Positions 5,138 to 27,666 are shown, counted from the stretch's first letter. The stretch: 27,666 bases of DNA from Promethearchaeota archaeon (GCA_016839765.1 JAEOTP010000076.1:1-27666), one strand, 5' to 3'. A program made the numbers and translations. The notes: generated by a model not told the origin, from the sequence alone.

Positions 5138-5159
5138 TGAAAAAACCTAATGAACAAAT

Positions 5160-7701: not shown

Positions 7702-7713
7702 AAACAAAGAATA

Positions 7714-8187: not shown

Positions 8188-8193
8188 AAAACC

Positions 8194-8643
8194 ATGGAAA
8201 CTCAAAGCCAAGGAGGGTTTTTGATTGCGAAAATTCATCAATTATCCCAGAGGATTTTCGCAAGAATTCTTAGGGATGCAAACCTAACTGAATTGAATCC
8301 TGCTCAAGGGAGAATTATGTTTGTTTTGTGGCGTGCGGATAACATTTCTATCCATGAGCTTTCAAAAAGAACGATTTTAAGTAAATCAACTTTAACATCA
8401 ATGCTAGATAGACTTGAGCAAGCAGGATTTATTAAAAGAGTTCCTTCTAAAAAAGATAGAAGAGAGATTTTAATACAATTAACTGAAAAGAACAAATTAC
8501 TTCAAGAAAAATATGTAGACGTTTCAAAAAACATGACTAAAATATATTACAATGATTTCACTGTTGAAGAAATGAATAATTTTGAAAATAAATTACAAAA
8601 AATCTTAGAAAATTTAATAAAATACAACAAGAAAAAGGTATAA
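8194..8643 (+). CDS. MarR family transcriptional regulator
   Basis: LNPAQGRIMFVLW, LSKSTLTSMLDRLEQAGFIKRVPSKKDRR and IQLT. Confidence 0.93.
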   Translation: METQSQGGFLIAKIHQLSQRIFARILRDANLTELNPAQGRIMFVLWRADNISIHELSKRTILSKSTLTSMLDRLEQAGFIKRVPSKKDRREILIQLTEKNKLLQEKYVDVSKNMTKIYYNDFTVEEMNNFENKLQKILENLIKYNKKKV

Positions 8644-8670
8644 ATAAAAAAAGGAATAATTAATATTATT

Positions 8671-9489
8671 ATGCCGTATGCTGAAATTAATGGAATTAAA
8701 ATATATTATGAAATTCATGGTGATGGATACCCTTTATTCATGCTTCATGGGTATGGTGCTACGAATAAAGTATGGATTGGTCAAGTTGGTGCGCTTTCTA
8801 AACATTTTAAAGTCATAATATATGATCACCGAAGTAGTGGTAAATCTGATCACCCTAATGAAGATTATACATTAGATACATTGGTAGAGGACTTAAAAGG
8901 GTTGATGGATTTTCTTGAAGTTGATAAAACGCATCTTATGGGTCAATCCATGGGTGGATGGATCTCTCAAAATTTTACTTTGAAATACCCTGAAAAAGTG
9001 AACAAACTTGTATTATTAGGAACAAATCATAAAGGTTCTGGCTTACCATTGCTCAGAGATAATTTAACTGAGCTTTTTGAACTTGCAAAAACTAATAAAG
9101 AAGAAGCTTTTTGGAGATATGCTAAATTAATGCATCATAGAAGATTTATAAAAGAGATGCAATCAGATCCAAAGAAGAAATTTTATGGATTATGGTCAGC
9201 GGAAGATTTGATAGAAGAATTAACAGAAAATCAAATGACTCCAGAAGATTATCAGAGATTTGAAAAGGCTGGTTCCATGCATACTGTTCTAGACCGTTTA
9301 TCTGAAGTAAAAAATCCTACGATAATAATTGGGGGTTCTAATGATAGAATGTCTCCAAAAATGGTTTTGGATGAAATGCATGAGAAATTGCCTAATAGCA
9401 GAATCGAGATTATAGAAAAAACAGGGCATCATGTTTTTATAGAAGAAGCACTCAAAGTAAATGAGCTTATAATCAATTTCTTAAAATAA
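8671..9489 (+). CDS. Alpha/beta hydrolase
   Basis: HGYG oxyanion motif, nucleophile elbow GQSMGG, Asp in GSNDRM and His in TGHH. Confidence 0.92.
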   Translation: MPYAEINGIKIYYEIHGDGYPLFMLHGYGATNKVWIGQVGALSKHFKVIIYDHRSSGKSDHPNEDYTLDTLVEDLKGLMDFLEVDKTHLMGQSMGGWISQNFTLKYPEKVNKLVLLGTNHKGSGLPLLRDNLTELFELAKTNKEEAFWRYAKLMHHRRFIKEMQSDPKKKFYGLWSAEDLIEELTENQMTPEDYQRFEKAGSMHTVLDRLSEVKNPTIIIGGSNDRMSPKMVLDEMHEKLPNSRIEIIEKTGHHVFIEEALKVNELIINFLK

Positions 9490-9539
9490 TAATTTTAAAC
9501 ATTTTTTTTAATTTAAGATTGAAGTATCAGGTTTTTGGG

Positions 9540-10169
9540 ATGGTTTTGTGTCGTTTTTTAGGAAATGCGTGCATAGAGTTAATTGGAGTAAAAGACCATA
9601 TCATTGTTGATCCTGTATTTTTATCTTCTCCTCGAAAAGGAATTGAACGGATTCTTATTACCCATCACCATCAAGATCATATTGAGATAAGTAAAATAAA
9701 AGAGATTGAGGAAAAATTTTCAGTAGAAGGGAGAGAGCTTGAGATATATGGCCCAGAATGCTTATATGAAGAGCTGAATGTTGAGTTTATTTTAATAATT
9801 CCTGGTTTTAAGATATCATTACATAACGGCGAAATTGAAGTATTTGAAAATGATTGTTGGAAAGCAGAGGGCTGTATAGCTTACTTAATCTCAATTGACA
9901 AAAAGAAAATTTTGCATACTGCTGATTCGGCTATTTTTTCATCTGCATTGAGGACTCTTAAAAATCAAATTGATCTGTGTTTTGTTGCTTGTTTTGAGGA
10001 AAATTTTGAAGATTATCTCAATTTTATAAAAGAAATTTCTCCAAAACAAGTAATTCCATATCATTTTTCAACTGAAAAAGAACAAAATGGTAAAAACTTA
10101 AGTAAATATTTAAAAGATAATGGTTTTAATTCAATATTCCTTTCGATTGGTAAGGAGATAGAACTATAA
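9540..10169 (+). CDS. MBL-fold metallo-hydrolase (UlaG-like)
   Basis: FLGNACIEL, IVDP, ITHHHQDH, LHTADS and VIPYH. ATG at 9540 is preferred (TTG at 9519 is an alternative). Confidence 0.8.
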   Translation: MVLCRFLGNACIELIGVKDHIIVDPVFLSSPRKGIERILITHHHQDHIEISKIKEIEEKFSVEGRELEIYGPECLYEELNVEFILIIPGFKISLHNGEIEVFENDCWKAEGCIAYLISIDKKKILHTADSAIFSSALRTLKNQIDLCFVACFEENFEDYLNFIKEISPKQVIPYHFSTEKEQNGKNLSKYLKDNGFNSIFLSIGKEIEL

Positions 10170-10226
10170 AGAGAAATATTTCGAACATTTTTTTTAATAA
10201 ATTTCAATAAATAATCTAAAGTTGTT

Positions 10227-10772
10227 ATGGAAAAGTTAAATGATCTTACTGTACCATTGTTGAATAAGCTAGCAAAAGAATGTGGCATTCAATTTAAAAA
10301 AGGAGATAAAAAACCAGATAAAATAGCTACATTGAAAAATGCTGGAATTCCAAAGGATAAACTGGAACGACTTATAGAAAAATATTCATCACAGAAAAGA
10401 ATTAAGAAAAGGAATAGTAAAGATATTATTTTAGAAATAAAAGGGAGAATCAGATTACTTGAAGACCAAGTAAAATTCCTAATGTCAAAGATTAGTGTTA
10501 GTGAAGTAAAAATATCAAAAGATAAGGATAGAGACATAATAACAATAACAAGTGATTTGGGAGATATTAAGAAATTTGTTAAATCTATGTTGTCTCCCGG
10601 AGAATCCATAACTATAGATGATTTAATAGAAATAAAAGAATTGCAAAAAATCCCCTTAATTACATTAAAGCATACTATATATGATTTAATTGAGGAAGGT
10701 ATTTTCGAGGTTTCAGAAGGGAGTTCGAGACAAAAAATAGGGGGAAAAATAGGCTTATTAACAAGGCGTTAA
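10227..10772 (+). CDS. Hypothetical protein: SAP/HeH(Rho-N)-like N-terminus, short coiled coil, C-terminal winged-helix-like region
   Basis: LNDLTVPLLNKLAKECGI...KKPDKIATL resembles a helix-extension-helix. SITIDDLI...LKHTIYDLIEEGIFEV resembles a wHTH. Confidence 0.7.
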   Translation: MEKLNDLTVPLLNKLAKECGIQFKKGDKKPDKIATLKNAGIPKDKLERLIEKYSSQKRIKKRNSKDIILEIKGRIRLLEDQVKFLMSKISVSEVKISKDKDRDIITITSDLGDIKKFVKSMLSPGESITIDDLIEIKELQKIPLITLKHTIYDLIEEGIFEVSEGSSRQKIGGKIGLLTRR

Positions 10773-10782
10773 ATAAAAACTT

Positions 10783-11802
10783 CTAAAGCTTAATGTCCTT
10801 TCCACAGTAAGGACAAATTTTAGCCGGAATATCAACTAAATTCTCACAATAAGAACATTTTATTTTATCAATATTATCTATTTCATTAATTCTTAAACTC
10901 AACATAAATTCATTTATATAATCAGGATTTACAATTAAATACTTTCCATCAATAACAAACTCAAATTTTTTTGCCCATTCAAATACTTTATCAGTAAATG
11001 TTTTTTCATCCATTTCTAACGCAGTTCGCATCATATCCAGTTTAATTCGATTAGAAACATCGACCATTGCCTTTATTTTTTCAATTCTTTCTTTTTCAAG
11101 TTCTGTTAATCTAATCTGTTCAGAATCCTTATACATCTTAACCTGATTTAATAACTCCAGAAGCTTTTCTGCTTTGTGCTTATCTCTTATTAAATGTTTC
11201 ATACGTTTTTTGAGAGGAAGCAGAGTAAATGTTTTATCATCCTTAGTTGTTAATTTTATGAAAGTATTTGAGCTTTTTAACTCTTCTACTATTTCTTTGA
11301 CGTTTAAGATTTTTAATTGATTTATGTACTCTTGTTTAAGTGGTTTAAAAGTTATTCTATTCTCAGTTAATAATATGATTCCTTTCATCAAGTTCAGTTT
11401 CCAATTTAGTGTTGGTGGAGAACCCTCCCAAAAGGCTCCCCTAGTTTCAAATATAATTGGTACTTTATTCTTAATATACAATCGAGTAATTTTTCTAAAC
11501 AAATCTTCTGTCAAACTTTTCGAATAAGAACGACTACTATCCTTAATAAGACGTGGAAAAAAGGTATAAACATTTCCTTGGGAATTTATTAATTCAATAA
11601 CGGGAATTCTGTATCTCTTATTAATATGATAACCCTGAATTTCAGATAGTTTAACTTCATAGAGAATCTTATCAATATCAGATTGGAAAGATAATTTTGC
11701 TTCTGTCAATTGGATGGTAACCCTTGCTCTTTTTGATATTAGAGCTCTAAAGGTAGGTGTTCCGGAATTAAAATTACCAAAAGATTCAAAATGGAGTACC
11801 AT
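10783..11802 (-). CDS. Hypothetical protein: two PH/GRAM-like segments, helical/WH-like domain, C-terminal zinc ribbon
   Basis: TIQLTEAKLSF and GIILLTENRITF strand motifs; C-terminal CSYCENLV...CPYCG. Confidence 0.7.
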   Translation of the reverse strand: MVLHFESFGNFNSGTPTFRALISKRARVTIQLTEAKLSFQSDIDKILYEVKLSEIQGYHINKRYRIPVIELINSQGNVYTFFPRLIKDSSRSYSKSLTEDLFRKITRLYIKNKVPIIFETRGAFWEGSPPTLNWKLNLMKGIILLTENRITFKPLKQEYINQLKILNVKEIVEELKSSNTFIKLTTKDDKTFTLLPLKKRMKHLIRDKHKAEKLLELLNQVKMYKDSEQIRLTELEKERIEKIKAMVDVSNRIKLDMMRTALEMDEKTFTDKVFEWAKKFEFVIDGKYLIVNPDYINEFMLSLRINEIDNIDKIKCSYCENLVDIPAKICPYCGKDIKL

Positions 11803-13546: not shown

Positions 13547-13708
13547 TATAATTCACTTTTTTTATTGAAAATCGATTAATAAAATATGTAATTTGGTTAT
13601 TTAAAAAATTATTGTAAATTTATTTTATTTAAGTTATCCTTTTCATAAACTTTTATTAGTTCACAGAATCTATTTTATAATTATTAAGTGAATTGTGAGA
13701 GCATAAAG

Positions 13709-15238
13709 ATGTCAACAGTTAAAGAAGCATATAAGGAAATTGAGAATATTATAGGTTCAGAATATATTTCTGATAAAGATTTTATGAAAGCTGCTTATTC
13801 TAGAAATGTAGATCCAGCGTTTCCAGATAGGTGGGCAGATATGATTGTAAGGCCAGAAACCACTGAACAAGTTTCTGAAATCGTAAAGATCGCTAACAAA
13901 TTTAAAATTCCCATGGTTCCAAGAGGAGGCGGAGCAGATTTAGTGGGTGGCTCAGTAACAAAAGGAGGAATTCTTATCGATCTCACCAGAATGAATAAAA
14001 TTATTGAAATCAATGAGGATGATTTTTATTGTGAGGTTGAATGTGGAATTACTTGGGGAAATTTAGTCTCAGAATTACACCAAAAAGGTTTAACAACGGG
14101 CGTTCTTGGTCCGGGAAGTGGGTTCTCGGCAACTATAGGCGGTGGTCTTTCAAATAGTACTGCTGGTTTTGGTTCCACCAAATACGGAGTTGTGCCTGAT
14201 ATTTGTTTGGGAGTAGAAGTAGTTTTACCTAATCCCCAAGGTACCATTATAAGAACAGGTGCAGCAGCTAATAAATATGCAAACCCTTTCTGCAGATATG
14301 GCGTCTCTCCTGATTTTACTGGACTTTTTATGGGAGATGTGGGCACAATGGGCATCAAAACTAAAGCTTTTTTAAAATTGTTTCCAAAAACTCCTTATAA
14401 AGCACAAAGATATTATATGCTTAACAAAAATGATTATAATAAAGTTGTGGATTTGTTATATAAGCTAAGGAGAGAAGTTCGGGATGGATTGCACGATGTA
14501 CTTGTTGTTCCTTTAGCCTTATTACAAATCTTGTCTATGATGGTTGAGAACAAACCTGCAAAAAGGCCAAGATTAAAAGGGCCTGTTTTTTCAATCTTGG
14601 TTGAGGCAATGGACCAAGGTATCTTAGATCTACATCTAAAGAAAGTTTCTGAAATAATGGAAAATGATACTAGATCGTTTGAATACCAAGAAATGGACTT
14701 AGATGCGCCCCTCTCAAAAGATTGGAAGTTCAACTTAAAATATGCATACAATTATTTTAATAAATATATCTCAATTGTACCACCTAAAATTTCTTGTACA
14801 ACATGTCATAAGATTCCTATCTCAGAAATTCCAAAAGCAGCACAACTAAGTAATGAATTTGATATTCAAAATAAAGGTGAATTTCCATCACAGAGTATCT
14901 CTTTATTTGCTACGGTTATATTTCTTATGCCTAATGGTCATTGTGTTATTGTAGGGGGATTTAATGCTGATAATATAGATGAACAACGCGAAATTTCCAT
15001 GAAGATGTGGCACAAAAAATTAAGAAATCAAGTTCGGTATGGTGGGGTTCATTATTGGCTTGGGGAGGCTATTTCCCAATCTATAGTAGAAGCTGATGCA
15101 TATACTCCCGAATTTGTACAATTTTTTAAAGATATGAAAAAAGCAGTGGATCCCAATTTTTTATTAAGCCCAAATAAGTTCCATATGTATAGTTATAATG
15201 ATGATATCACCAAATATATAATCAAAAATGAAGAGTAG
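13709..15238 (+). CDS. FAD-binding oxidoreductase (GlcD/D-lactate dehydrogenase, VAO/PCMH family)
   Basis: IVRPETTEQVSEIV, PRGGGADLVGG, DLTRMNKI, ATIGG, KYG, GTMGIKTKA and DPNFLLSPNK. ATG at 13709 (GTG at 13688 is an alternative). Confidence 0.9.
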   Translation: MSTVKEAYKEIENIIGSEYISDKDFMKAAYSRNVDPAFPDRWADMIVRPETTEQVSEIVKIANKFKIPMVPRGGGADLVGGSVTKGGILIDLTRMNKIIEINEDDFYCEVECGITWGNLVSELHQKGLTTGVLGPGSGFSATIGGGLSNSTAGFGSTKYGVVPDICLGVEVVLPNPQGTIIRTGAAANKYANPFCRYGVSPDFTGLFMGDVGTMGIKTKAFLKLFPKTPYKAQRYYMLNKNDYNKVVDLLYKLRREVRDGLHDVLVVPLALLQILSMMVENKPAKRPRLKGPVFSILVEAMDQGILDLHLKKVSEIMENDTRSFEYQEMDLDAPLSKDWKFNLKYAYNYFNKYISIVPPKISCTTCHKIPISEIPKAAQLSNEFDIQNKGEFPSQSISLFATVIFLMPNGHCVIVGGFNADNIDEQREISMKMWHKKLRNQVRYGGVHYWLGEAISQSIVEADAYTPEFVQFFKDMKKAVDPNFLLSPNKFHMYSYNDDITKYIIKNEE

Positions 15239-15249
15239 GGGAGAAACTT

Positions 15250-16464
15250 ATTACTGAATTTAATCCTAAAGAAAAATTTAAGCATTTAAGTAAATTTGGA
15301 AACACTCTCCTTCAGTGTATAAGTTGTGGTGATTGTAGAGAAGCTACAGATTACACAGCAAACCCTCAAAAATGGGGAGTATGTGTAGCTAGAGACCACA
15401 CATCTGGGTTTGAACCCTTCTTTGGTAGAGGAAAAATGCAAATTATAAGATCACTTTGGCAAGGGAAATTAGAGTTAAGTAAAGATATGGCAGAAGTCAT
15501 TTATCAATGTCCTACCTGTAATGCTTGCGCAGAAGCGTGTGCTTATGAAATGGATAATGCACTTATGTATGAGGCACTAAGAGCAGAATTAATTGATGCT
15601 GGTTGTGGATTAGAAGCGCACATTCCAATGAATAAAGCTATGGTTGAGTTGTTGAATCCCTATGAACGTGATAATAAACAAAAAAACGAGTGGATTAGCA
15701 AATTAGATTTTGAAATCAAGGATGCGTATTCTGAAAAAGCAGATGTATTATTTTTTGTTGGATGCACAGCCGCTTTAACTCCTGAAATCCAAACTGTGGC
15801 AATAAACACAGCAAAAATTCTTAAAAAATTAAATGTTGATTTTGCAGTACATGGGGAAAAAGAAGTTTGTTGCGGAAGCGTGGCATTAAGGACAGGGAAT
15901 TGGGAGGCGTTTAATTCTGTAGCCTTAAAAAACTATGAATTATTCAAAAAGAGCGGAGTTAAGACAATCATAACAAGTTGCGCTGGTTGTTATAGGACTT
16001 TAAAAGTCAATTATGCTGATTTTCTTGAAGATTTAAATATTAAAGTACTACATACAGTAGAATTTATTAGAAATTTTATAGAGCAGAATGATATTGAAAT
16101 GAAACAATTTGGGATTAATGTAACTTATCATGATCCGTGCCATACTGGAAGAAATGCTGGTGATACACCGCTTTATGAGGAACCCCGAGAGTTATTGAGA
16201 AAAATTGCGAATTTAGTTGAAATGAAAACAATTAAAGAAAATTCAAAATGCTGTGGTGCTGGCGGTGGTGTAAAGAAAGGATTTCCGGATCTAGCTTTAG
16301 AAATAGCAAAAAGTAGAATAAGAGAAGCAGAGGCAACTGGAGCAGAATATATTGTCAGTATCTGCCCTTTTTGTTATAGAAATTTATCGGATGCAATTAA
16401 AGCTCTCAATTCTGATATCAAAATGGCAGATTTGACCGGATTAATTAATAAAGCTTTAGGTTAG
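15250..16464 (+). CDS. Fe-S oxidoreductase with 2x[4Fe-4S] and two CCG domains (HdrD/GlcF/GlpC-like); probable ATT start
   Basis: The in-frame region upstream of ATG 15436 encodes the first cluster motif (CISCGDC...C...GRGK). It is followed by CPTCNACAEAC, FFVGC, CCG, SCAGC, YHDPCH, CCGAGGG and CPFC. Confidence 0.88.
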   Translation: MTEFNPKEKFKHLSKFGNTLLQCISCGDCREATDYTANPQKWGVCVARDHTSGFEPFFGRGKMQIIRSLWQGKLELSKDMAEVIYQCPTCNACAEACAYEMDNALMYEALRAELIDAGCGLEAHIPMNKAMVELLNPYERDNKQKNEWISKLDFEIKDAYSEKADVLFFVGCTAALTPEIQTVAINTAKILKKLNVDFAVHGEKEVCCGSVALRTGNWEAFNSVALKNYELFKKSGVKTIITSCAGCYRTLKVNYADFLEDLNIKVLHTVEFIRNFIEQNDIEMKQFGINVTYHDPCHTGRNAGDTPLYEEPRELLRKIANLVEMKTIKENSKCCGAGGGVKKGFPDLALEIAKSRIREAEATGAEYIVSICPFCYRNLSDAIKALNSDIKMADLTGLINKALG

Positions 16465-18420: not shown

Positions 18421-19323
18421 TTATTTCTCCAGGTTTTTATCGTTCTGAATGGTTAGACTATTTTTTTTCCATAGAAATGAAGAAATTATTCCTATAAAAA
18501 CTATTAATAGCGGATAGATAATAACTTCCAGTAGCGATGGATTGGCATTATATCCAAATAGAGTTTTTAATAATGAACCTATAATTTCAAGGAATTCTGG
18601 TGTTGCTGGATTACCATCGGGAAAACTTTCTGGCAAAATCGATTTTATATTCCAAACTTCTTCAATTATAGGATTTATAAGTCCCGCTTCTATTAATTCA
18701 TGAATGCCATATGTTATTAAGCCCGCAGCAAATAAAATCAGCATAACATTCGTTATTTTAAAGAATTTAGTTAGGTTGATGGATTTAATCCCATAGAAAG
18801 TTAAAATGCCAATTAAAGCAGAAATCGATAATCCAATCAAAGAACCAATAATTACATCTATTTGATTCAGGGAGCCAACTGAAGTTGCTCCAGTTAAAAG
18901 AAGTACTAATTCAATTCCTTCTCTTATAATTATAACAAAAGTTAGAATCGTAATTGAAAAAACCTTTTGCGTTTCAATTGATAGTACAATTCGATTTTCA
19001 ATGCTTTCCTTTAATTTAGGACCTTCTTTACTCATCCACAAGATTAAGGTTATAATAAAAATTCCTGAAATAATAAACGTAAATCCTTCAAAAATTTCTT
19101 CTAGAGTTCCACTAAAGCCTCCAAAAAAACTATTGAATAATATGGCGAATAAGATACTCACGATAATAGCCAATACGCCACCAAGAAAAACATATTTGTA
19201 ATAGTAGTTTTGATTTGAATTTTTTAGGTATAGAATTATTATGACGATAACTAAAACTGCTTCTAACCCTTCTCTAAATGCTAGAAATATCGGGACTGCC
19301 AGATCTACAATCGAAAATATCAT
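18421..19323 (-). CDS. FTR1/EfeU family iron permease
   Basis: Two REGxE motifs (FREGLEA, IREGIEL), AAGLITYGIHEL and LFGY; multiple TM helices. Confidence 0.93.
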   Translation of the reverse strand: MIFSIVDLAVPIFLAFREGLEAVLVIVIIILYLKNSNQNYYYKYVFLGGVLAIIVSILFAILFNSFFGGFSGTLEEIFEGFTFIISGIFIITLILWMSKEGPKLKESIENRIVLSIETQKVFSITILTFVIIIREGIELVLLLTGATSVGSLNQIDVIIGSLIGLSISALIGILTFYGIKSINLTKFFKITNVMLILFAAGLITYGIHELIEAGLINPIIEEVWNIKSILPESFPDGNPATPEFLEIIGSLLKTLFGYNANPSLLEVIIYPLLIVFIGIISSFLWKKNSLTIQNDKNLEK

Positions 19324-19384
19324 AATCTTATCAAATATTTTAACCTGTTTACTAAGAATTAAATATGTAAAAATAATAAAAATT

Positions 19385-19398
19385 TTAGGCTTATCTAA
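19385..19398. promoter_or_regulatory. Candidate DtxR/MntR-type metal-repressor operator
   Basis: TTAGGCTTATCTAA (TTAG-N6-CTAA), about 60 nt upstream of the FTR1 start, in the FTR1/GDT1 divergent region. Confidence 0.45.
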
Positions 19399-19597
19399 TA
19401 TAAGTAAATTTTTAGTTATAAATGAAAAATTGTATCTTATTTCTATAAAATTTTATTATCTAAAATTCTATTTTTAATGGTTAAATAGGAGTAATATATT
19501 TTAAAGTCTCTACATATCCAAATAAAAATCAAAAAAGTTAACTATAATGATTTTAATAAATCAAAAAGTTTATCAATTTCCTTTAATTTCAATTACC

Positions 19598-20242
19598 ATG
19601 GACGTATTTGCAATTTTAATCATCTATGGAACTTTATTTCTTATGGAATTAGGGGATAAAACGCAATTAATAGTATTTAATCTTGCTTTAGAGTACAAAA
19701 AGTTCTATAAAGTAGGTATAGGAGCTAGTATTGGATTTGCTTTAATAGTTACCATTGGAGTTTTCTTCGGAGCAATCATAGCTGAGTTAGTTCCTTCCTT
19801 TATCATATCGATTGTATCAGGAATTATATTTATATTAATTGGCCTTCTAGAGGCGCGTTCTCTTAAATCACTTTATTTTGATAGAAAGAATAAAAGTAAA
19901 GAAATTATTGAAAGTAAAAATGAAGAAAAAAAAGAAAATCAAGAAAATAATAAGAAATTACGATTTACAAAATTAAGGAAAAATCCTTATTTAGCAGGAT
20001 TTGGTTTTATTTTCCTTATGGAGCTTGGAGATAAAACCCAAATAGCCACAATTTCCTTTGCTTCAACAAAACCTCTAATAGAAGTGTGGATTGGTTCATT
20101 TCTTGCTCTGATTACAGTAGCATGGATGGGAATTTTGATAGGTGCTTCAATTGCGAAAAAAGTTCCAAAATTTTATCTAAAATTGCTATCTGTATTAATT
20201 TTTATAATAGTTGGGATTATAACTATTATTAATTCTCTCTAA
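19598..20242 (+). CDS. TMEM165/GDT1 (UPF0016) Mn2+/Ca2+ transporter
   Basis: Two ELGDKTQ motifs separated by a charged loop. ATG at 19598 is preferred over 19547. Confidence 0.93.
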   Translation: MDVFAILIIYGTLFLMELGDKTQLIVFNLALEYKKFYKVGIGASIGFALIVTIGVFFGAIIAELVPSFIISIVSGIIFILIGLLEARSLKSLYFDRKNKSKEIIESKNEEKKENQENNKKLRFTKLRKNPYLAGFGFIFLMELGDKTQIATISFASTKPLIEVWIGSFLALITVAWMGILIGASIAKKVPKFYLKLLSVLIFIIVGIITIINSL

Positions 20243-21150
20243 ACTTTACAAAATTCAGGGTCATTAATTGATATTAGTTGTAAAGTTGATTCAATGACAT
20301 TATATTTTTCGATTAAATAATTATTAATCTTAGAAACTAAGCTACCTTGATTATTATTCAAATTTTTATCATCTACTTTTATATAGGCCGAAAAAACTAA
20401 CATATCTGGAGTAATAGTCCATAAATGAACGTTATATAGGTCAATAATCTCTTGAAAATCTTGTTTTAATTCTTCACTAATGATATCGATATTCATTCCT
20501 TTTGGGGTCATTTCTAACAAAATTCTTGTTGAATCCCTTAAAACACTCCAAGCCCAGTAAAGAATTAGAACCGATATTCCTAAACTAACCAAAGGGTCAA
20601 GTATATTTAATCCAGTATAATAAATTATAATTGAAGCAATAACAATCCCTATCGATGATGCTGCATCAGCAATCATGTGGTAAAATACACTTTTTACATT
20701 CAGATTCTTATCTTGACTTCCCCGCAAGATAATAACACTTGTTATGTTAACGTTTAAGCCAATCAAAGCAATAATGAACATATAAAATCCAAAAACTTCT
20801 TCAGGATTAATAAATCTAAGAATTGCCTCATAAACCATTATTCCAACAATTGGTAAAAGAAAAAGACCATTAATAAATGCTGCTAAGACTTCTGCGCGAA
20901 AGAGACCAAATGTTTTATGATGACATGGTGGTTTTCTAGCAATAAAAATAGCTAATAAGCTTATTCCAATCGCAAAAGAATGAGTAAACATATGACCCGC
21001 ATCACTTAGTAAGGCGATACTGTTAGTCATTAGACCCCCAATTATTTCTAAAATCATAACTGTAGATGTAATTATTAAGGATAAGAGTAATTTTTTCTTT
21101 ACTACCGAACGAAATTGGAATAAATGCTGGGAAAATGCATTTTTACTCAT
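20239..21150 (-). CDS. czcD: Cation diffusion facilitator (CzcD/ZitB-like)
   Basis: NSIALLSDAGHM, TFGLFRAEVLAAFING, NLNVKSVFYHMIAD, LDP, ILLE and VHLWTIT. Confidence 0.9.
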   Translation of the reverse strand: MSKNAFSQHLFQFRSVVKKKLLLSLIITSTVMILEIIGGLMTNSIALLSDAGHMFTHSFAIGISLLAIFIARKPPCHHKTFGLFRAEVLAAFINGLFLLPIVGIMVYEAILRFINPEEVFGFYMFIIALIGLNVNITSVIILRGSQDKNLNVKSVFYHMIADAASSIGIVIASIIIYYTGLNILDPLVSLGISVLILYWAWSVLRDSTRILLEMTPKGMNIDIISEELKQDFQEIIDLYNVHLWTITPDMLVFSAYIKVDDKNLNNNQGSLVSKINNYLIEKYNVIESTLQLISINDPEFCKV

Positions 21151-21276: not shown

Positions 21277-21513
21277 TTATTTGACTGCTTCAAAATATAT
21301 ATACCAGACTTCATCATCTTCTAGATAGTCTGTTCCTAAATGCTTGTGTTTTGTTTTGGCCAGATCACGTGGAACTGATTCACTTGCTGGTTTATAATCC
21401 GTAATTACCTTCAAAACCGTTCCAGGTCTCATTTTCATAAGTTGTTTTTTTGTTTTAAGTGCCGGTACAGGGCATACTAACCCACAAACATTTAATTCCT
21501 GATCAAAATTCAT
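21277..21513 (-). CDS. tusA: TusA/SirA-family sulfur carrier
   Basis: LNVCGLVCPVPALKTKK...GTVLKVITD; AAGGAG ribosome-binding site upstream. Confidence 0.88.
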   Translation of the reverse strand: MNFDQELNVCGLVCPVPALKTKKQLMKMRPGTVLKVITDYKPASESVPRDLAKTKHKHLGTDYLEDDEVWYIYFEAVK

Positions 21514-21545
21514 ATTTTTTTCTCCTTAATTTTTTTAATTTTTAT

Positions 21546-24014
21546 TTAGGTACATAATATTGAAAATAAAGGCTCATCCATTTCAGGTTCTGCTTTAATT
21601 TCTAACTGCATTAACTGAGCTAACCTAAGAGCTTCATATCTTACTTTCTTAGGATCAAGACCGGTTTGTTGAGCAATATCAGTAATAGTACTTGGACCCT
21701 GAAGTGAAATATAATCTAAAACTTGCTGTCTTGGAGTTTTTTCAAAGTTCATTAGTTCACGTTTTGATTTCAGGTTAATCGCATTTTTTATCTCTTCTTC
21801 ATTAGCTTCTCTTTGTTCAAACAAACCTTTTTCAATTGCTTGATCAACGAGCGTTTTACCCCGTTCTGTCCAAGCAATTACTGTTGTATAACCCTCTTTT
21901 GAACCAACTTCACCAGCAGTGAGATCTGAATATATTGCTGGAAAATCTTGACAATGAGAACAGAAATGGTTGCAACTTAGACATCTTCGTGCTTCTTGCA
22001 ACGCCATATCTTCGTTGAATATTTTATCAATTTCTTCAAAGGTCCAGTTTATTTCTTCAGTAGCTTCTTCTAAAGTTTCTGGTTTTAATGAATAATCTTT
22101 TGGAGGCTTTTTAGGCCCTATAAAAAAGGCATTCTCTTTTTTATATCTTCCTTCAATTAAATTTTCTCCTTTCAAATATCTGTCAATTGAGATTGCTGCC
22201 TCCTTTCCATGAGATATTGCGGCAATTGCTACAGCTTTAGAGTTATTGATGATATCTCCACCAGCAAAAACTCCTGGAATGTTTGTTTCGAATGTGACTT
22301 CGTTTACTTTAATTTTATTTCGCTCTTTTTCTAATTTTTTATTGGTAGCAGCATCAATCTGCTCAAAATCTACAGCTTGACCAACCGCTATTACAATAGA
22401 ATCAACGGGTATTTCATAATCTGAACCTTCAAGCTCATTTAATGGTTTTCTCCCGTTTTCATCAGGAGCGCCCCATTCGATATGATAACAGTTCAAAACC
22501 AGCTCACCTTTGTCGTTCTGAGTAACTTTTGAAGTTGATGTAGTGAAATGATATTCCATAAATGCTATTTCATTTTCAGGAATATCTTTTATTACCAATT
22601 CGAGTTGCTCTCCTGACATGATATCAACAAGGTGGATTTTTTCAGCACCTAATCTAAGAGCAGTTTGAGCAACATCAACAGCAACAGGACCACCACCGAT
22701 TATGCCTAAGGTCTTTCCTTTGAACTCTTCCTTATTTTCCCAGAATCGATATTTTCTATCCATTAAGAAATTAATTGCTACATACACATCTGGTAGATTT
22801 TCTCCTTCTAAATGTAAGGTACGAGGTTTATACTGTCCAGTTGCAATAAAGATGGCCTCAAACCCATCATTTTTTAAATTATCAATAGACATTTCAGGGC
22901 CTAAAGGCTTATTGAGTACAACTTCGACACCAGAATCTACAATCCTACCTACATCATAATCTAATACATAATTTGGTAATCTAAATTGTGGTACACCGAA
23001 TCTTAGCATTCCTCCAGTTTGATCTGTCTTCTCAAAAATTGTGGGAGCATAACCCATTCTCCTTAAGAAATATGCCGCTGTTAATCCAGCTGGTCCAGAT
23101 CCAATAATTGCTACTTTTTTGGCATTTTTAATTAATTTAGCTTTTGTTTTTGAAGTGTTTTTTGATCTTTCAATTTCCCATTCGGTAACAAATTTCTTTA
23201 ATTCACGAATTGCAACAGGATGATCATCTCCAATTAAAGTGCAGCCATGTTCACATTCATTTGTACAAATTCTTCCACATATAGAGGGAAGTGGATTTCT
23301 TTCTCTAATTAGGTCTACCGCGTCTTGATATTTCCCTTGACGAATTAATGAAATATATCCTTGAGCATTAACACCAGAAGGACAGCCACTGCAACATGGA
23401 GAACATATTAATCCTTTATCTGTTTGTTCAGTTCTCATTTGAGAACTACAGAACAATCCAATTTTTAAAATTTCTCGATTCATATCTTCTTCAAGTTCAG
23501 CAGCTCCACGCATTTCACATGGCACACCGACAATACCAATTGGATCAAATGTTTCACCCGTGAGTTCTACTAATCTTTGTAGGACGCCAGATCTACCATA
23601 AATAACACCAGCTTTTTGAACTACTTCATTAGGATCTGAAACTATTTCAGCGGTAGGTTTCTCATCTTCCTCTTGAACCATAACAATCTCTTTTAGAGAC
23701 TCGTTTTCTAATAATTCTTTCGCAAAAGTAGTTACAAATCCTCCACTTGAAGCCTTAGCTAATACTTTAGGATCTTTGCTCCTTAAAGAATAAATGGCGA
23801 GAGGTTGCTTCTCTTTAAATTTCTTTTGGATTACTTGGGGGCAATTCTGATAACATTTTCCACAAGCTTGTCCATCTCTTTCCAAAATACAATAATCTTT
23901 CAATGTGGGACGTCTAACTTCCATTTCAATATGCTTACACGAGCCAGCACATAATCCACATCCTTGACAAAGACCAGCATCTACAATTTCTTCTCTTAAT
24001 AATTCAAAACTCAT
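21546..24014 (-). CDS. Ferredoxin-FrhB (F420-binding) protein with an inserted GltD/NfnB-type FAD/NAD(P) oxidoreductase and C-terminal HTH
   Basis: Ferredoxin CQGCGLCAGSC/CGKCYQNCP. FrhB motifs SSGGFVT, GIVGVPCE, KIGLFC, and later CSHCQDF...SDLTAGEVGS..GYTTV. GltD motifs PCCSGCP, CGRICTNECE, IIGSGPAG, GGMLRFGVP, IGGG, FAGGD and EARRCLSC. Confidence 0.85.
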   Translation of the reverse strand: MSFELLREEIVDAGLCQGCGLCAGSCKHIEMEVRRPTLKDYCILERDGQACGKCYQNCPQVIQKKFKEKQPLAIYSLRSKDPKVLAKASSGGFVTTFAKELLENESLKEIVMVQEEDEKPTAEIVSDPNEVVQKAGVIYGRSGVLQRLVELTGETFDPIGIVGVPCEMRGAAELEEDMNREILKIGLFCSSQMRTEQTDKGLICSPCCSGCPSGVNAQGYISLIRQGKYQDAVDLIRERNPLPSICGRICTNECEHGCTLIGDDHPVAIRELKKFVTEWEIERSKNTSKTKAKLIKNAKKVAIIGSGPAGLTAAYFLRRMGYAPTIFEKTDQTGGMLRFGVPQFRLPNYVLDYDVGRIVDSGVEVVLNKPLGPEMSIDNLKNDGFEAIFIATGQYKPRTLHLEGENLPDVYVAINFLMDRKYRFWENKEEFKGKTLGIIGGGPVAVDVAQTALRLGAEKIHLVDIMSGEQLELVIKDIPENEIAFMEYHFTTSTSKVTQNDKGELVLNCYHIEWGAPDENGRKPLNELEGSDYEIPVDSIVIAVGQAVDFEQIDAATNKKLEKERNKIKVNEVTFETNIPGVFAGGDIINNSKAVAIAAISHGKEAAISIDRYLKGENLIEGRYKKENAFFIGPKKPPKDYSLKPETLEEATEEINWTFEEIDKIFNEDMALQEARRCLSCNHFCSHCQDFPAIYSDLTAGEVGSKEGYTTVIAWTERGKTLVDQAIEKGLFEQREANEEEIKNAINLKSKRELMNFEKTPRQQVLDYISLQGPSTITDIAQQTGLDPKKVRYEALRLAQLMQLEIKAEPEMDEPLFSILCT

Positions 24015-24016
24015 CC

Positions 24017-25252
24017 TTATCCCTCTTTAATTTTAATTTCTTTTACAATACCAATTGGATCAATTGTAAATTCAACTGAACCATTCTTATATGTTCCTTC
24101 GACCACCTCAAAAACGTGGCTTTTATATTCTTCAAAATCATCATTATCATCAATTTGTGACCTAAATCCTCCAAAGAATACATTGGATAAATTCATGTTT
24201 CCAGCAATTTTACGAATTTCTTTAGTAATTTTCTTATATTGTTCTGGATCCTTACTCTGAATTGTTTTTTGAAGTTCATCTTCAAATTTTAACAATTGTT
24301 TTCGATAATTTTTAGCCTTTTCACTTAATTCAATATTATTAGCTTTTTCGTAAGATTCGATTATTTTTAGTGTTAATGAGATTGAATGATCTCCCCCTAA
24401 TAACCCAGAAATTAAAGGTAATTCTTCAATAAGCCTTCCTGTAAAAACATCCTCTAATAAGTTACCATTTGAAGGAATTCGACCTTTTGGTAATCCTGAT
24501 GTTGATAAAGTAAATCTAAAGAAATTACCTACTATATCGGGTACCCTTTCAGTTACATCATCATCCTTGTCTGCTAATTTATCAGTTGCTCCTTTTTCAG
24601 AATGTTCAGTTGCAACTTCAATATTTCCCATAAGAGTTCCAAACATTCCTAACATTCTGATCCCAGAACGTTCTATAATTGGTTTACAACCTCTACATGG
24701 AGCATTATAGTCAATACATCGTTCTTTACATTCTCTTGAGACAAAACCATTACAAAGATATCCGAGATCGTTAAAACATGTCTCAGTATCTTCTAAGTCA
24801 ATTTGCCGTTTTACGTCATCTAAGTAATCACATGTTTTTCGCCTTCCGCATACAATACAGAGATTTTTTAAGTTTGGGAGATCAGCCTCTTCAATCTCTA
24901 GTTTTAATTCTTCAATTTCCCCTAAGCAACCATTAATACTAATTGAACCTTCAATAATTTTATTTAAAGGAGTTACTTCATGACCTTTTTGATTAGCAAG
25001 AGCAAAAATCCCTCCAGTTGTAGCACAGTTTCCATAAGCAATCACTTTTCCTGAATTTGTTCTAATTTTATTTAAAGTATTCTTATTCTCTGGTAGTAAA
25101 AATCCAGTGATTATTGATACATCAGTCTTTTCTTCTTTCCAATTTTGAGGATCTTGTATAAATTCTACTTTATATTTTGATTCTCCCTTTAAGAGAATCG
25201 TCTCATAAAAGCATTTATTACATCCGTTAAACTGGAATATTCTAACATTCAT
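24017..25252 (-). CDS. MvhG/HoxY-like [NiFe]-hydrogenase small-subunit homolog with C-terminal extension
   Basis: GCNKC, YGNCATTGG, NGC, LCIVC, CFNDLGYLCNG, RCIDYNAPCRGC and PDIVGNFFRFTL, then about 160 extra residues. Confidence 0.78.
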   Translation of the reverse strand: MNVRIFQFNGCNKCFYETILLKGESKYKVEFIQDPQNWKEEKTDVSIITGFLLPENKNTLNKIRTNSGKVIAYGNCATTGGIFALANQKGHEVTPLNKIIEGSISINGCLGEIEELKLEIEEADLPNLKNLCIVCGRRKTCDYLDDVKRQIDLEDTETCFNDLGYLCNGFVSRECKERCIDYNAPCRGCKPIIERSGIRMLGMFGTLMGNIEVATEHSEKGATDKLADKDDDVTERVPDIVGNFFRFTLSTSGLPKGRIPSNGNLLEDVFTGRLIEELPLISGLLGGDHSISLTLKIIESYEKANNIELSEKAKNYRKQLLKFEDELQKTIQSKDPEQYKKITKEIRKIAGNMNLSNVFFGGFRSQIDDNDDFEEYKSHVFEVVEGTYKNGSVEFTIDPIGIVKEIKIKEG

Positions 25253-25694
25253 CTTTGAAAGTCCCCTCCTCTCTAATTGCAGTTGCTAATCGTTCTACAA
25301 TATCTTCAAAATCTCCGACAGCTGTTTCTCCTTCGGCAGCTCGAGAAGTATATTGATTAACAAATTGATCACTATAACCTAACTCTTTAAATAACTTTTT
25401 CATTAATTTTATTCTATGCATTGATAAAATATTCCCATTAAAGAAATGACATGCCCCTAAACAGCAGCCAACGCACGCAACTGCGTCTGCTCCATTGCTT
25501 AAGGCATCCATAATTTGAATGGGACCAACTTGACCAGTACATTGTACTCGAACTATCCGAATTGCAGGATTATAAGCCATTCGAGCTACGCCAGCTGTAT
25601 TTGCTGAACCTTGCCCACATTCATTGCACATAAAAATTACAATATTTTCCATCTTTTCAAGTACTTCTGGTTCAATATATTCACATTCACTCAT
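25242..25694 (-). CDS. mvhD: MvhD/FlxD [2Fe-2S] subunit
   Basis: IFMCNEC, IRIVRVQCTG and GADAVACVGCCLGACHFFNGN. ATG at 25694 overlaps the hdrA end and follows GGAGGTG. Confidence 0.88.
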   Translation of the reverse strand: MSECEYIEPEVLEKMENIVIFMCNECGQGSANTAGVARMAYNPAIRIVRVQCTGQVGPIQIMDALSNGADAVACVGCCLGACHFFNGNILSMHRIKLMKKLFKELGYSDQFVNQYTSRAAEGETAVGDFEDIVERLATAIREEGTFKDEC

Positions 25695-27666
25695 TTTCGC
25701 ATACAGCACCTCCGCCTGATATTGCGATTATTTCATCTAATAGCTGTTCATCACTAAAATTTAATAATTGTATTGCTCCTGTGGGACAAACAGGCATACA
25801 CATACCACAGGACTTGCAAGCAATTTCATTTACCATAGGTGTTCCATCATCATTAATTTCAATTGCAGCTGGAGCACATACAGTTTTACATAGTCCACAT
25901 CTAACACATAAATCGTAATCTACCGTAGGAACTAACATTTCTTTTTCGATATAACCTTTAACTAATGGAGCCGCTGCTATTGCTGCGGCATTCCCTGCTT
26001 GAGCAACTGATTCTGAAATGTCTTTAGGACCTTGAATAGCTCCCGCTAAAAAGATACCTCCTTTGCTACTTAATGTGGGGTTCATTTTAATATGAAATTC
26101 CTTAAGAAAACCTTCTTTTGAGCGAAGTACATGTAATTTTGACCCTAAAGGTCCGATGCCTTCAGGGGGTACCATCGCTGCTGAAAGTACGACCATGTCC
26201 GCCTTTAATTTTAACGGCGTTTGACTAAGAGTATCTTCGACTATAACTCTCAATTCTCCAGAAATAGGGTCTCTGAGAATCTCTGATGGACGTCCTCTAA
26301 TAAATCGAACACCTACCTCTTGAGCAGATTTATATAATTCTTCAAAGTTTAAACCAGGAGTCCTCACATCAATATAGCAGATAGTAACATCTGAATCGGG
26401 ATACATTTCTTTAACAATTCGAGCATTTTTAATTGCAAACTTACAACAACCTCCTGTACAGTATTGATTCCCTACTTGATCATTTCTACTTCCTACACAT
26501 TGTATCATTACAATACTTTTAGGAATTTTAGCATCAGAGGGTCTTAATACCTGACTGTTAGTAAGAGAACCGGGAGCTAGCATTCTTTCTAATTTGAGTT
26601 GTGTAATTACATCTTCATATCCTTCTTGACCATAATGGTATGGTTCAATTTCAGAGGGGTTATACTCATCATAACCCGCTGCGACAACAATAGAACCGAC
26701 TTTAAAGGTTTTTGTTTCGGTTTGCATTGAAAAATCTACTGCTTGTACAGGGCAAACGTTAATACAAGTATTACACTCAATACAGCTTTTTTTATCTCTC
26801 ACATACGTAGCGGGAATTGCTTGTGGATAGGCTTTATAAATTGCATTTCTCACTGACATACCACTATCCCATTCACTAGGTACCTCCACAGGACAGTGTA
26901 GGGCGCATTCACCGCAAGATGTACAGTTATCTTTGACATATCTTGGTTTAATTTCAACCTCAACTTCAAAATTACCCATTGAACCCTCTACACTTTTAAC
27001 TTGAGCATTAGTATAGAGTTCTATTAATGGATGATTAGCTACACCATTAGTTAATGGAGATATACTACATTGAGGACACTCCAATGTCGGGAATGTCTTA
27101 TTTAATTGTGTCATATGTCCCCCGATTGTAGATAATTTTTCTACTAAATAAACTGGAATTCCTAACTCAGCTAAATCATATGACGCACGAAGCCCTGCGA
27201 TACCAGCACCAATTACTAATGCAGCTTTCGTTGTAGGAACTCTCCGTGTCTCAACATCTTCTAATTTTCGTGCTCTATTTACTCCAGCTTCTACTAACTT
27301 CTTTGCTTTTTCAGTTGCTTTATCTTTTTCTTTCTGATGCACCCAACTATTATACTCTCTAATATTTACTTGTTGGTGTTTATGTCTATTAATTCCCATT
27401 TCTTCAATTGCTTTAGCAAAAGTCCTACCATGCTGATTTTTTGAACATGAAGCCACCACTGTTCTATTGACATCGAATTCTTCAATAGAATCTTTGAGCA
27501 TTTGTACTCCAGGTTTTGAACACATAAACATATAATGTTCAGCTTTAACCACGTTTGGTAAATCTTTAGCATAATCTGCTACTTTAGCAACATCGACGGT
27601 ACCAGCAATATTATGACCACAATGACATACAAAAACTCCTATTCTGGGATCTTCTTCTTTTTTATC
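25687..27666 (-). CDS. hdrA: Heterodisulfide reductase subunit A (5' end outside window)
   Basis: The frame is open from the window edge: DKKEEDPRIGVFVCHCGHNIAG...MFMCS, NIRE, VIGAGIAG, GGHMTQLNKTFPT, an inserted ferredoxin, QCVGSR, YCTGGCC, YIDVRTPG, GPKDI and a C-terminal 2x[4Fe-4S] ferredoxin. Confidence 0.95.
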   Translation of the reverse strand, partial: DKKEEDPRIGVFVCHCGHNIAGTVDVAKVADYAKDLPNVVKAEHYMFMCSKPGVQMLKDSIEEFDVNRTVVASCSKNQHGRTFAKAIEEMGINRHKHQQVNIREYNSWVHQKEKDKATEKAKKLVEAGVNRARKLEDVETRRVPTTKAALVIGAGIAGLRASYDLAELGIPVYLVEKLSTIGGHMTQLNKTFPTLECPQCSISPLTNGVANHPLIELYTNAQVKSVEGSMGNFEVEVEIKPRYVKDNCTSCGECALHCPVEVPSEWDSGMSVRNAIYKAYPQAIPATYVRDKKSCIECNTCINVCPVQAVDFSMQTETKTFKVGSIVVAAGYDEYNPSEIEPYHYGQEGYEDVITQLKLERMLAPGSLTNSQVLRPSDAKIPKSIVMIQCVGSRNDQVGNQYCTGGCCKFAIKNARIVKEMYPDSDVTICYIDVRTPGLNFEELYKSAQEVGVRFIRGRPSEILRDPISGELRVIVEDTLSQTPLKLKADMVVLSAAMVPPEGIGPLGSKLHVLRSKEGFLKEFHIKMNPTLSSKGGIFLAGAIQGPKDISESVAQAGNAAAIAAAPLVKGYIEKEMLVPTVDYDLCVRCGLCKTVCAPAAIEINDDGTPMVNEIACKSCGMCMPVCPTGAIQLLNFSDEQLLDEIIAISGGGAVCENE

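Follow-up and report, generated by a model that had tools for sequence, protein, structure and literature searches.

The window analysed here is the complete 27,666-bp contig JAEOTP010000076.1 (C58) of Promethearchaeota archaeon GCA_016839765.1, a member of the Lokiarchaeia (Promethearchaeota) whose genome comprises 3.32 Mb in 96 contigs and is 96% complete. On its minus strand, between positions 21277 and 27666, it carries five coupled open reading frames (ORFs) encoding HdrA, MvhD, an MvhG-like protein (MvhG*), a hybrid FrhB/GltD flavoprotein (X) and TusA. These genes were found to be the 3' half of a 12-gene cluster, tusA-dsrE-dsrF-dsrH-dsrE2-hdrC-hdrB-hdrA-mvhD-mvhG*-X-tusA. The C-terminal extension of MvhG*, of approximately 155 residues, is best read from its alignments and modelled structure as a vestigial, metal-free [NiFe] large subunit fused to MvhG. 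We consider it fairly probable that the cluster encodes an H2-independent bifurcating complex of the HdrABC/MvhD family, which would couple reduced coenzyme F420 (F420H2) and/or reduced nicotinamide adenine dinucleotide (NADH) to ferredoxin and to sulfur bound to TusA and DsrE-type proteins. We class it as an Hdr-type bifurcating complex with an exchangeable donor module.

Gene content and distribution of the cluster

An earlier note on this DNA described an operon of five tightly coupled minus-strand genes. ORF calls and Pfam confirmed the layout, including the overlaps, the 2-nt gap before X and the 32-nt gap with AAGGAG before tusA, but the operon proved to be only one half of a larger unit. 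The whole cluster is present on long contigs of two relatives (GCA_019058365.1 and GCA_048940445.1), with a divergent AsnC/Lrp regulator gene upstream. In both, hdrB and hdrC, which the earlier note had proposed to look for, lie directly upstream. In the genome of the window, the 5' half of the cluster was located at the very end of another contig (C4), where hdrC stops at base 40,500 of 40,502. This hdrC is 95% identical to that of the relative, and the assembly gap holds only hdrB and approximately 19 codons of hdrA.

The MvhG* extension was used as a marker for the distribution of the cluster. It was present in 80 of 400 Asgard genomes, in an ORF of 412-452 aa wherever complete. As far as the contigs reach, the order hdrA-mvhD-mvhG*-X(-tusA) was kept in all 29 near loci and in all 24 distant loci fetched, and the cluster ends with tusA in most loci whose sequence extends far enough. 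Its carriers include Promethearchaeum syntrophicum MK-D1 (DSAG12_01149), Lokiarchaeum ossiferum (NEF87_002001), Ca. Harpocratesius repetitus, Ca. Sigynarchaeum springense and metagenome-assembled genomes (MAGs) of Thorarchaeota. When 1.84 billion representative proteins were searched, the extension was found in only a handful of 50%-identity clusters. One of these belonged to a Methermicoccaceae MAG (L094, GCA_054798655.1), in which the locus at 4340-11629 reads dsrE-dsrE-hdrC-hdrB-hdrA-mvhD-mvhG*-frhB-tusA. A copy in this methanogen-related lineage outside Asgard suggests either that the cluster is old or that it was transferred laterally. In one further lineage the order is DsrE-hdrA-mvhD-mvhG*-(mini X)-tusA-(TusA/DsrE fusion). 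The gene order first noticed in the window is thus kept in Lokiarchaeia, Thorarchaeota, Sigynarchaeum and even one Methermicoccaceae MAG.

No mvhA was found in or beside the cluster in the 56 loci inspected, and no ORF with an L1 motif in the 29 near loci. The MvhA expected of MvhADG-HdrABC, a large subunit with the motifs L1 (RxCGxC) and, at its C-terminus, DPCxxCxxH, is accordingly missing from the operon in the window and at 56 related loci.

The MvhG-like protein and its extension

The mvhG* gene (24017..25252, 411 aa) overlaps mvhD by 11 nt. Its core (residues 1-255; 24488..25252) corresponds to a whole small subunit of the MvhG type. The alignment of residues 1-258 extends over the entire MvhG chains 5odc_E and 9sw2_E, including the C-terminal tail. 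An AlphaFold2 model was built from an alignment of 99 sequences that included distant orthologues and canonical MvhG. It was confident throughout (predicted local distance difference test, pLDDT, 92.9; predicted template modelling score 0.91); an earlier alignment of 57 close homologues had given a pLDDT of 47. In an exhaustive structure comparison the model matched 5odc_E with a Z score of 21.4 and a root-mean-square deviation of 2.6 over 242 residues. A small subunit of the FrhG type rather than the MvhG type was rejected on the same measure (Z 12.4 for FrhG). Ten Cys (C76, C109, C132, C135, C159, C167, C175, C179, C186, C189) do not vary across the 99 sequences, and the conservation of C11 and C14 is 90% or higher. 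MvhG* therefore has the 12 conserved Cys of an MvhG small subunit, which provide ligands for three [4Fe-4S] clusters.

The extension (residues 256-411; 24017..24487) lacks Cys and the L1 and L5 motifs. In alignments it contains a stretch, GRxIEExPxI...G, resembling the region of MvhA around the L1 nickel-binding motif. When a profile of 70 extensions was compared by hhalign with a profile of 31 Asgard MvhA sequences, a match was obtained with P 2e-5, a score of 42.1 and an HH probability of 77%. Extension residues 11-68 were paired with MvhA residues 40-97, and RICGLC stood opposite GLLGGD. At looser settings the alignment continued to MvhA residue 161, with GGFxxP opposite GGRSxHP. Controls scored lower, at 14.4 for the reversed query and at no more than 25.6 for 60 block-shuffled ones. 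The only structure matches that reached residue 411 of the model were FrhA (Z 10.3, 160 residues), Nqo4 (9.1), the 49-kDa subunit (9.0) and MbsL (8.8). A Foldseek search of the MvhG* model against the PDB returned, among the matches listed, small-subunit chains only, this one domain filling the list. With language-model features of the extension alone, the three best named matches were PF00374 clusters, at a score of 0.86, which is below the 0.9 threshold for a lead.

Simpler sequence searches did not recover the relationship. A phmmer search of the extension against all ORFs of its own genome gave no significant match to either MvhA, and a HMMER profile of the extension, run against PDB sequences and Pfam, gave no large-subunit match, just coiled-coil noise. 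Homology to the large subunit emerged only in the profile-profile, structure and language-model comparisons. These are each moderate alone, and the vestigial large subunit is favoured because all three agree. In Lokiarchaeia the extension contains no Cys and no C-terminal DPCxxCxxH, and GLLGGD occupies the L1 position. A split large subunit, with its C-terminal fragment encoded separately, was also considered and was rejected, as no orphan PF00374 fragment was found in the genome. The claim that the operon has no NiFe large subunit is thus borne out for mvhA at the 56 loci, but it has to be amended, as a metal-free vestige of that subunit appears to be fused to MvhG.

The flavoprotein X

The gene for X (21546..24014, 822 aa) begins after a 2-nt gap from mvhG*. 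Pfam domains were found in the order FrhB_FdhB_N, Fer4_20, Pyr_redox_2 and FrhB_FdhB_C, all above gathering scores. Residues 1-70 (23805..24014) are a 2x[4Fe-4S] ferredoxin domain, which NCBIfam FpoF/FrhB models match from residue 9 and in which 8 Cys are invariant among 21 orthologues. Residues 71-205 (23400..23804) comprise the FrhB N-domain (FrhB_FdhB_N, E 1.8e-12, 47.7 bits against a cut-off of 22) and the first part of the FrhB C-domain, and align with plain FrhB proteins of Thorarchaeota and Methermicoccaceae. The C-domain is split by an insertion, and its remaining part (residues 687-760; 21735..21956; FrhB_FdhB_C, E 5.8e-19, 68.9 bits against a cut-off of 23.3, profile positions 73-149) aligns with the FrhB chains 3zfs_C and 9r51_B. 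The protein ends in a winged helix (residues 761-822; 21546..21734), for which the Pfam matches, to HVO_A0114 and HTH families, were weak and below gathering thresholds. By its domains X is a member of the FrhB/FdhB/FpoF family and a candidate for F420 binding.

The insertion (approximately residues 206-686; 21957..23399) is an NfnB/GltD module, with a 2x[4Fe-4S] domain (Fer4_20, E 8.7e-23) and flavin adenine dinucleotide (FAD) and NAD(H) Rossmann domains (Pyr_redox_2, E 6.6e-27). Its boundaries were set by alignment with FrhB-only orthologues, which placed this module of approximately 480 residues at the cluster-binding loop of FrhB. Its PDB matches were 9n5u_A (NfnA of the NfnABC type, 5e-87), 8oh5_C (StnC) and 4ylf_B (NfnB, 1e-70), and its EAxRCLxC segment is circularly permuted as in StnC and NfnA. 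As in NfnB and GltD, the two-cluster Fer4_20 domain is combined with FAD and NAD(P) Rossmann domains, and the glycine motifs for FAD and the dinucleotide are retained. The module claimed by the earlier note as an NAD(P)-type flavin site is therefore present, but the motif YRR(S/T)xxEMPA, which binds the 2'-phosphate in sites of the NADPH type, has been replaced, the window X reading HLVDIMSGEQLE, HLVDIMS. Most X orthologues have D or E at the end of beta-2. By the usual rule for Rossmann folds, this acidic residue makes the site look like an NADH-type rather than an NADPH-type one.

Only one orthologue (L086:1437-3905, genome G153) retains ILYRRSEDQMPA, the canonical NADPH-type motif, in an X that is 52% identical to those of its relatives. 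Its sequence suggests another nucleotide specificity or an exchanged GltD module.

Both modules of the FrhB/GltD hybrid occupy the slot after mvhG* in the window, as had been noted, but the GltD part is variable and is absent in Thorarchaeota and in some Lokiarchaeia. In Thorarchaeota and Methermicoccaceae X is a plain protein of 345-389 aa with a ferredoxin domain, FrhB and a winged helix, equivalent to residues 1-205 and 687-822 of the window X. Among the 29 close relatives, two have an X without the flavin and nucleotide domains of the GltD module. In these short versions of approximately 380 aa (L021:356-1507 in G260, of the same genus, and L028:359-1507 in G202) remnants of the cluster-binding flanks are kept, and they show that the nucleotide module was lost recently in the family. 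X is split into two ORFs in Sigynarchaeum. A mini X of 126-149 aa, with only the ferredoxin domain and the winged helix, was found in Ca. Harpocratesius repetitus and in one further lineage. What stays constant across the variants is therefore the 2x[4Fe-4S] domain together with the winged helix, and we take these parts to be the connection to MvhG*. A complex prediction for the Thorarchaeota MvhG* with its FrhB-type X gave a score of 0.01, which speaks neither for nor against binding. No gene for an NfnA/PyrK-like or GltB partner was found in the cluster, be it in the window or in relatives.

Two other fusions of the same modules were observed in this genome. In an ORF of 938 aa (C33:8448-11261), near a canonical hdrA/mvhD-mvhG-mvhA group (C33:150-4768), a GltD-like part stands in tandem behind a complete FrhB, and an ORF of 1648 aa (C13:19550-24493) joins an MvhD domain to a GltD-like part.

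Hdr subunits, MvhD and the sulfur carriers

The hdrA gene (25687..27666) is open at its 5' end, which is the contig end, and lacks approximately 19 N-terminal residues by comparison with a 678-aa orthologue (L008) of 96% identity. Its product is a five-domain HdrA of the full type. It aligns end to end with the solved chain 5odc_A (residues 2-646, E 1.6e-187), and NCBIfam HdrA2/HdrA models match its residues 8-649. The equivalents of E356 (LKLERM) and K409 (FAIKNA) of 5ODC, which stabilise the bifurcating FAD (PMC12054007), are both kept. Judged on these features, HdrA is a complete subunit of the bifurcating type.

The mvhD gene (25242..25694, 150 aa; Pfam FlpD, E 6.9e-32) encodes the [2Fe-2S] electron-transfer subunit, in which 6 Cys are invariant among 22 orthologues. 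Its start is most likely the ATG at 25694, which gives an 8-nt overlap with hdrA, because the length of the 150-aa product matches the gene calls in relatives; the GTG at 25709 is less likely. Among orthologues, HdrB has 10 invariant Cys, with two CCG motifs, and HdrC has 8 invariant Cys. The cluster thus has MvhD and a five-domain HdrA, an HdrB with two CCG motifs and an HdrC with ligands for two [4Fe-4S] clusters, as in MvhADG-HdrABC.

The tusA gene of the window (21277..21513; Pfam TusA, E 7.2e-19, 67.8 bits against a cut-off of 28.6) is preceded by an AAGGAG ribosome-binding site (21522..21527), read directly from the sequence, within the 32-nt gap that separates it from X. Cys14 of its CPVP motif is invariant in 21 of 21 orthologues, and the Cys of CPxP is invariant in both TusA proteins of the cluster. 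Cys79 of DsrE and Cys101 of DsrE2 are also invariant among orthologues. The link to sulfur that the earlier note had drawn from a single tusA proved stronger than claimed, as the cluster also includes another tusA together with dsrEFH and dsrE2. All domain assignments given above for the window proteins, among them TusA, FlpD (MvhD) and Oxidored_q6, exceeded the Pfam gathering cut-offs, apart from the winged helix of X.

Genome context and expression

Full-length [NiFe] large subunits are encoded away from the cluster in all six genomes checked (that of the window and five others). In the window's genome they lie on contigs C33 and C46, each adjoining its own small subunit. The distance from the cluster is approximately 3 Mb in MK-D1, where each full-length large subunit stands beside its own MvhG, approximately 0.4 Mb in L. 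ossiferum and approximately 1.6 Mb in Harpocratesius. The absence of mvhA from the cluster, as the earlier note had it, thus held at all 56 loci, with the large subunits elsewhere in six genomes. Genes for F420 biosynthesis were found in the window's genome, as that note would have them: cofH (with a cofG-like neighbour), cofE and cofD, of which cofH, cofE and cofD scored above curated cut-offs. In this 96%-complete genome neither DsrC/TusE nor sulfite reductase was found, from which it follows that the DsrEFH carriers are not serving a Dsr pathway. Two GcvH-family genes are present, only on contigs C57 and C75, away from the cluster. The genome also encodes 11 MvhD proteins, roughly two dozen CCG proteins and some ten FrhB-like ones, so that the cluster is one of many Hdr-type modules.

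In MK-D1 the genes DSAG12_01145-01150 are listed, without interpretation, under 'Heterodisulfide reductase complexes' in Supplementary Tables 3 and 4 of Imachi et al. (2020). Expression there was 265-318 reads per kilobase per million (RPKM) for these six genes and 182 RPKM for the adjacent tusA, DSAG12_01151. This level was similar to that of the true Mvh hydrogenase genes (296-371 RPKM; Imachi et al. 2020), and the main text of the same paper credits MK-D1 with a single hydrogenase.

Some of the hydrogenase-related genes of the window's genome may encode selenoproteins. An MvhA-like large subunit (C46:19998-21311) ends in DPWIK, without the C-terminal DPCxxCxxH, and approximately 25 nt downstream there is a small ORF reading ...RCFDC-TGA-LSCAAH. 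From its sequence this pair looks like a split [NiFeSe] large subunit of the VhuA/VhuU type, with selenocysteine in the nickel-binding motif. Three copies of MvhD (FlpD) each contain two in-frame TGA codons (C43:12816-13181, C35:18970-19338 and C59:58024-58389), which is consistent with the genome coding for selenocysteine paralogues alongside versions with Cys.

Other genes were observed in the window. Directly downstream of tusA, at 18421-21150, are genes for an FTR1 iron permease (minus strand), a GDT1/TauE-like protein (plus strand) and a cation-efflux protein of the CDF type (minus strand); these do not belong to the conserved cluster, because relatives carry other genes there. On the plus strand at 13688-16464, a gene for a FAD_binding_4 (GlcD-type) dehydrogenase adjoins a gene for a protein with two CCG domains (HdrD/GlcF-like). 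This pair is probably a lactate/glycolate-type dehydrogenase, of a kind reported to be expanded in other Asgard lineages. Two plus-strand ORFs, at 2418-3650 (410 aa) and 10227-10772 (181 aa), had no Pfam match.

Discussion

The H2-independent HdrA complex proposed in the earlier note is supported by the gene content of the cluster, from which its function is deduced. In the mechanism that we propose, X would oxidise F420H2 and/or NADH, the former at the flavin of FrhB and the latter at that of the GltD type, and its ferredoxin domain would pass the electrons into the clusters of MvhG* at the face that formerly adjoined the NiFe site. The stump would shield this face and might act as a docking surface. 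From MvhG* the electrons would travel through MvhD to the FAD of HdrA and be split there, one going to ferredoxin and the other, by way of HdrC, reaching the pair of non-cubane clusters in HdrB. This last subunit would then reduce an S-S bond (a persulfide, a trisulfide or a protein disulfide) on the carriers of the TusA and DsrE families. Both an electron sink and a supply of sulfide for biosynthesis were considered as the role of such a reaction. The relevant potentials are about -340 mV for F420, -320 mV for NADH, -420 to -500 mV for ferredoxin and about -270 mV for sulfane sulfur/H2S. As these midpoint potentials are close, the reaction may run either way. A reduction of persulfides bound to TusA and DsrE by Hdr, with H2 as the donor, has been proposed independently in a figure legend of a 2025 preprint on Nerearchaeum.

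Several points weigh against this proposal. On textbook potentials, bifurcation towards ferredoxin with a persulfide as the acceptor would be near equilibrium at best, and what is known here of the function of the cluster members comes from their genes. Not all FrhB-family modules use F420, and the FrhB of Thorarchaeota lacks a subdomain of approximately 50 residues. In the organisms with a mini X (Ca. Harpocratesius repetitus and one other lineage), neither F420 nor NADH would enter through X, and the GltD module is dispensable, as it is missing in two of the 29 close relatives. The mode of contact between X and MvhG* is putative. The homology of the stump depends on moderate scores (HH probability 77%, Z of approximately 9-10, language-model score 0.86), and the extension covers just about one third of the large-subunit fold.

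The main rival is a complex working in the oxidative direction, similar to sHdr, which we consider unlikely. HdrB would here oxidise sulfane sulfur delivered by TusA and DsrE, and the electrons, possibly joined by those of reduced ferredoxin (confurcation), would reduce F420 and/or NAD+ through MvhD, MvhG* and X. The set of carriers (TusA, DsrE-type and DsrE2) does resemble the companions of sHdr described in PMC11094781 and PMC4175335. The lack of a detectable DsrC or sulfite reductase in the 96%-complete genome, which leaves the carriers without a Dsr pathway to feed, is also in keeping with it, and confurcation of electrons from ferredoxin and at the level of sulfide onto NAD+/F420 would be downhill on textbook potentials. 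However, there is a single hdrCB pair rather than hdrC1B1A-hyp-hdrC2B2, no gene for a lipoate-binding protein was found in or beside the cluster, and HdrA is of the full five-domain methanogen type, associated with MvhD, rather than the minimal HdrA of sHdr. Moreover, the hosts live strictly as anaerobic fermenters, and an acceptor that a sulfur-oxidising lifestyle would need is not evident.

The cluster could also encode an ordinary H2-dependent MvhADG-HdrABC that receives its MvhA in trans, from a gene elsewhere, and at least one full-length [NiFe] large subunit is indeed encoded elsewhere in six of the six genomes checked. In the window's genome and in MK-D1, however, each of these adjoins its own small subunit, and the stump of MvhG* appears homologous to the part of MvhA that would fill the same place, so that its occupation of this place argues against the binding of a full MvhA. 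The fusion and X are conserved across classes with no mvhA in the operon at 56 loci, and no orphan C-terminal fragment of MvhA was found in the genome; we regard this explanation as highly improbable. A regulatory role, in which MvhG* and X would form a redox sensor whose winged helix binds DNA and tunes the sulfur-relay and Hdr genes by the redox state of the clusters, seems to us very unlikely. The winged helix and the ferredoxin domain are the only parts present in every X and persist as a protein of 126-149 aa without FrhB, as would be expected of a sensor, but the matches to HTH families in Pfam are weak and sub-threshold, the cofactor ligands of the complete electron path are all conserved, and X is translationally coupled within an enzyme operon that has a separate AsnC/Lrp regulator gene upstream. 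An H2-independent bifurcating complex, with F420H2 and/or NADH as donor and ferredoxin and carrier-bound sulfur as acceptors, remains the reading that we prefer.

A wider role for this complex can also be envisaged, although we hold it to be rather improbable. NfnB-type FAD is the bifurcating flavin in Nfn enzymes. The FrhB-FAD, the NfnB-type FAD and the bifurcating FAD of HdrA might together be wired through the fossil hydrogenase into a redox hub of four substrates, in which Lokiarchaeia would interconvert F420H2, NADH, ferredoxin and carrier-bound sulfane sulfur, with sulfur rather than H2 as a main outlet for reductant. If true, sulfur would be a main reductant outlet in the syntrophic archaea closest to eukaryotes.

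In the literature on Asgard/Lokiarchaeota Hdr, Mvh, FrhB and sulfur carriers, no account was found of the fused hydrogenase vestige, of the link of this cluster to the sulfur carriers, of the FrhB with a GltD insertion and its variants, or of the cluster beyond Lokiarchaeia. The nearest items found were the MK-D1 gene list and the general hypothesis in the 2025 preprint. The complex had been put forward as a novel candidate, and no description of it as such was found, but a supplementary table had already given the MK-D1 orthologues, without interpretation. Current models for the physiology of Asgard archaea and for syntrophic eukaryogenesis lean on 'MvhADG-HdrABC' genes as H2-evolving or H2-consuming. 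The cluster examined here is of the Hdr/Mvh type, widespread and transcribed, and is present in both cultured Lokiarchaeia, yet it would not encode a hydrogenase, because its NiFe subunit appears to be a metal-free stump. Its partners, an F420/NADH flavoprotein and sulfur carriers, point instead to a cytoplasmic, sulfur-linked route for electrons that has so far not been considered for Lokiarchaeia. Automatic annotation of genes of the mvhG* type as hydrogenase subunits would lead to an overcount of hydrogenases in metagenomic surveys. The hypothesis is open to direct test, since cultures exist of both MK-D1 and L. ossiferum.

Comparison with known systems

The cluster is closest in its core to MvhAGD-HdrABC of methanogens ([NiFe] group 3c, 5ODC), with which it shares HdrA, MvhD, the MvhG fold and the ligand sets of HdrB and HdrC. 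It differs in that MvhA appears cut down to a Cys-free stump of approximately 155 residues on MvhG, followed by the flavoprotein X, and in that its flanks are TusA, DsrEFH and DsrE2 rather than genes of methanogenesis; the likely substrate would be protein-bound sulfur and not CoM-S-S-CoB. Two other Hdr systems, FlxABCD-HdrABC in Desulfovibrio and HdrA2B2C2, which depends on F420H2, in Methanosarcina acetivorans, work independently of H2, and the place of the hydrogenase is taken in them by a dehydrogenase module for a nucleotide or a deazaflavin. Both retain an MvhD-type subunit, as FlxD in the former and as a domain fused to HdrA2 in the latter, as does the present cluster. Unlike these systems, the cluster has no homologues of FlxA, FlxB or FlxC, and its putative donor module consists of FrhB with an inserted GltD part. 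Its connector would be MvhG with a hydrogenase vestige, which is found in neither of them.

With sHdr-LbpA (PMC11094781, PMC6067878) the cluster shares an Hdr-type core genetically tied to TusA and to DsrE-family transferases, which here carry their active-site Cys. The arrangement hdrC1-hdrB1-hdrA-hyp-hdrC2-hdrB2 with lbpA was not found; the cluster has one HdrBC pair, no hyp, no LbpA and a full HdrA of the bifurcating type, and it contains MvhD, MvhG* and X, which are absent from sHdr.

The donor module has counterparts in two other groups of enzymes. In Ca. Ethanoperedens, FrhB modules with an N-terminal ferredoxin domain are likewise attached to unrelated Fe-S enzymes, the CO dehydrogenase and the formylmethanofuran dehydrogenase (PMC11493965; 8RJA, 8RIU), and the chains of 8RJA and 8RIU were among the best PDB sequence matches of X. 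X differs from these by the NfnB/GltD insert, by the C-terminal winged helix and by its placement on Hdr, apparently by way of a fossil hydrogenase. The inserted module itself resembles NfnB of NfnAB, StnC and NfnA of the Bfu type (4YLF, 8OH5, 9N5U), with the two [4Fe-4S], FAD and Rossmann sites aligned over approximately 415-480 residues (E 1e-70 to 5e-87). Unlike them, it lies inside FrhB, has no NfnA (PyrK-like) partner and carries an acidic residue at the end of beta-2 in place of YRR.

The stump of MvhG* may be compared with Nqo4/the 49-kDa subunit of complex I and with MbsL of the membrane-bound sulfane sulfur reductase, which are descendants of the large subunit that have lost the metal site and sit on a homologue of the small subunit. 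Those proteins keep the whole fold of approximately 400 residues with a new catalytic pocket, whereas the stump amounts to about one third of it, is joined to the small subunit in a single chain and has no evident catalytic site. The cluster would thus represent a soluble hydrogenase recycled as an electron wire, in parallel to complex I and Mbs/Mbx.

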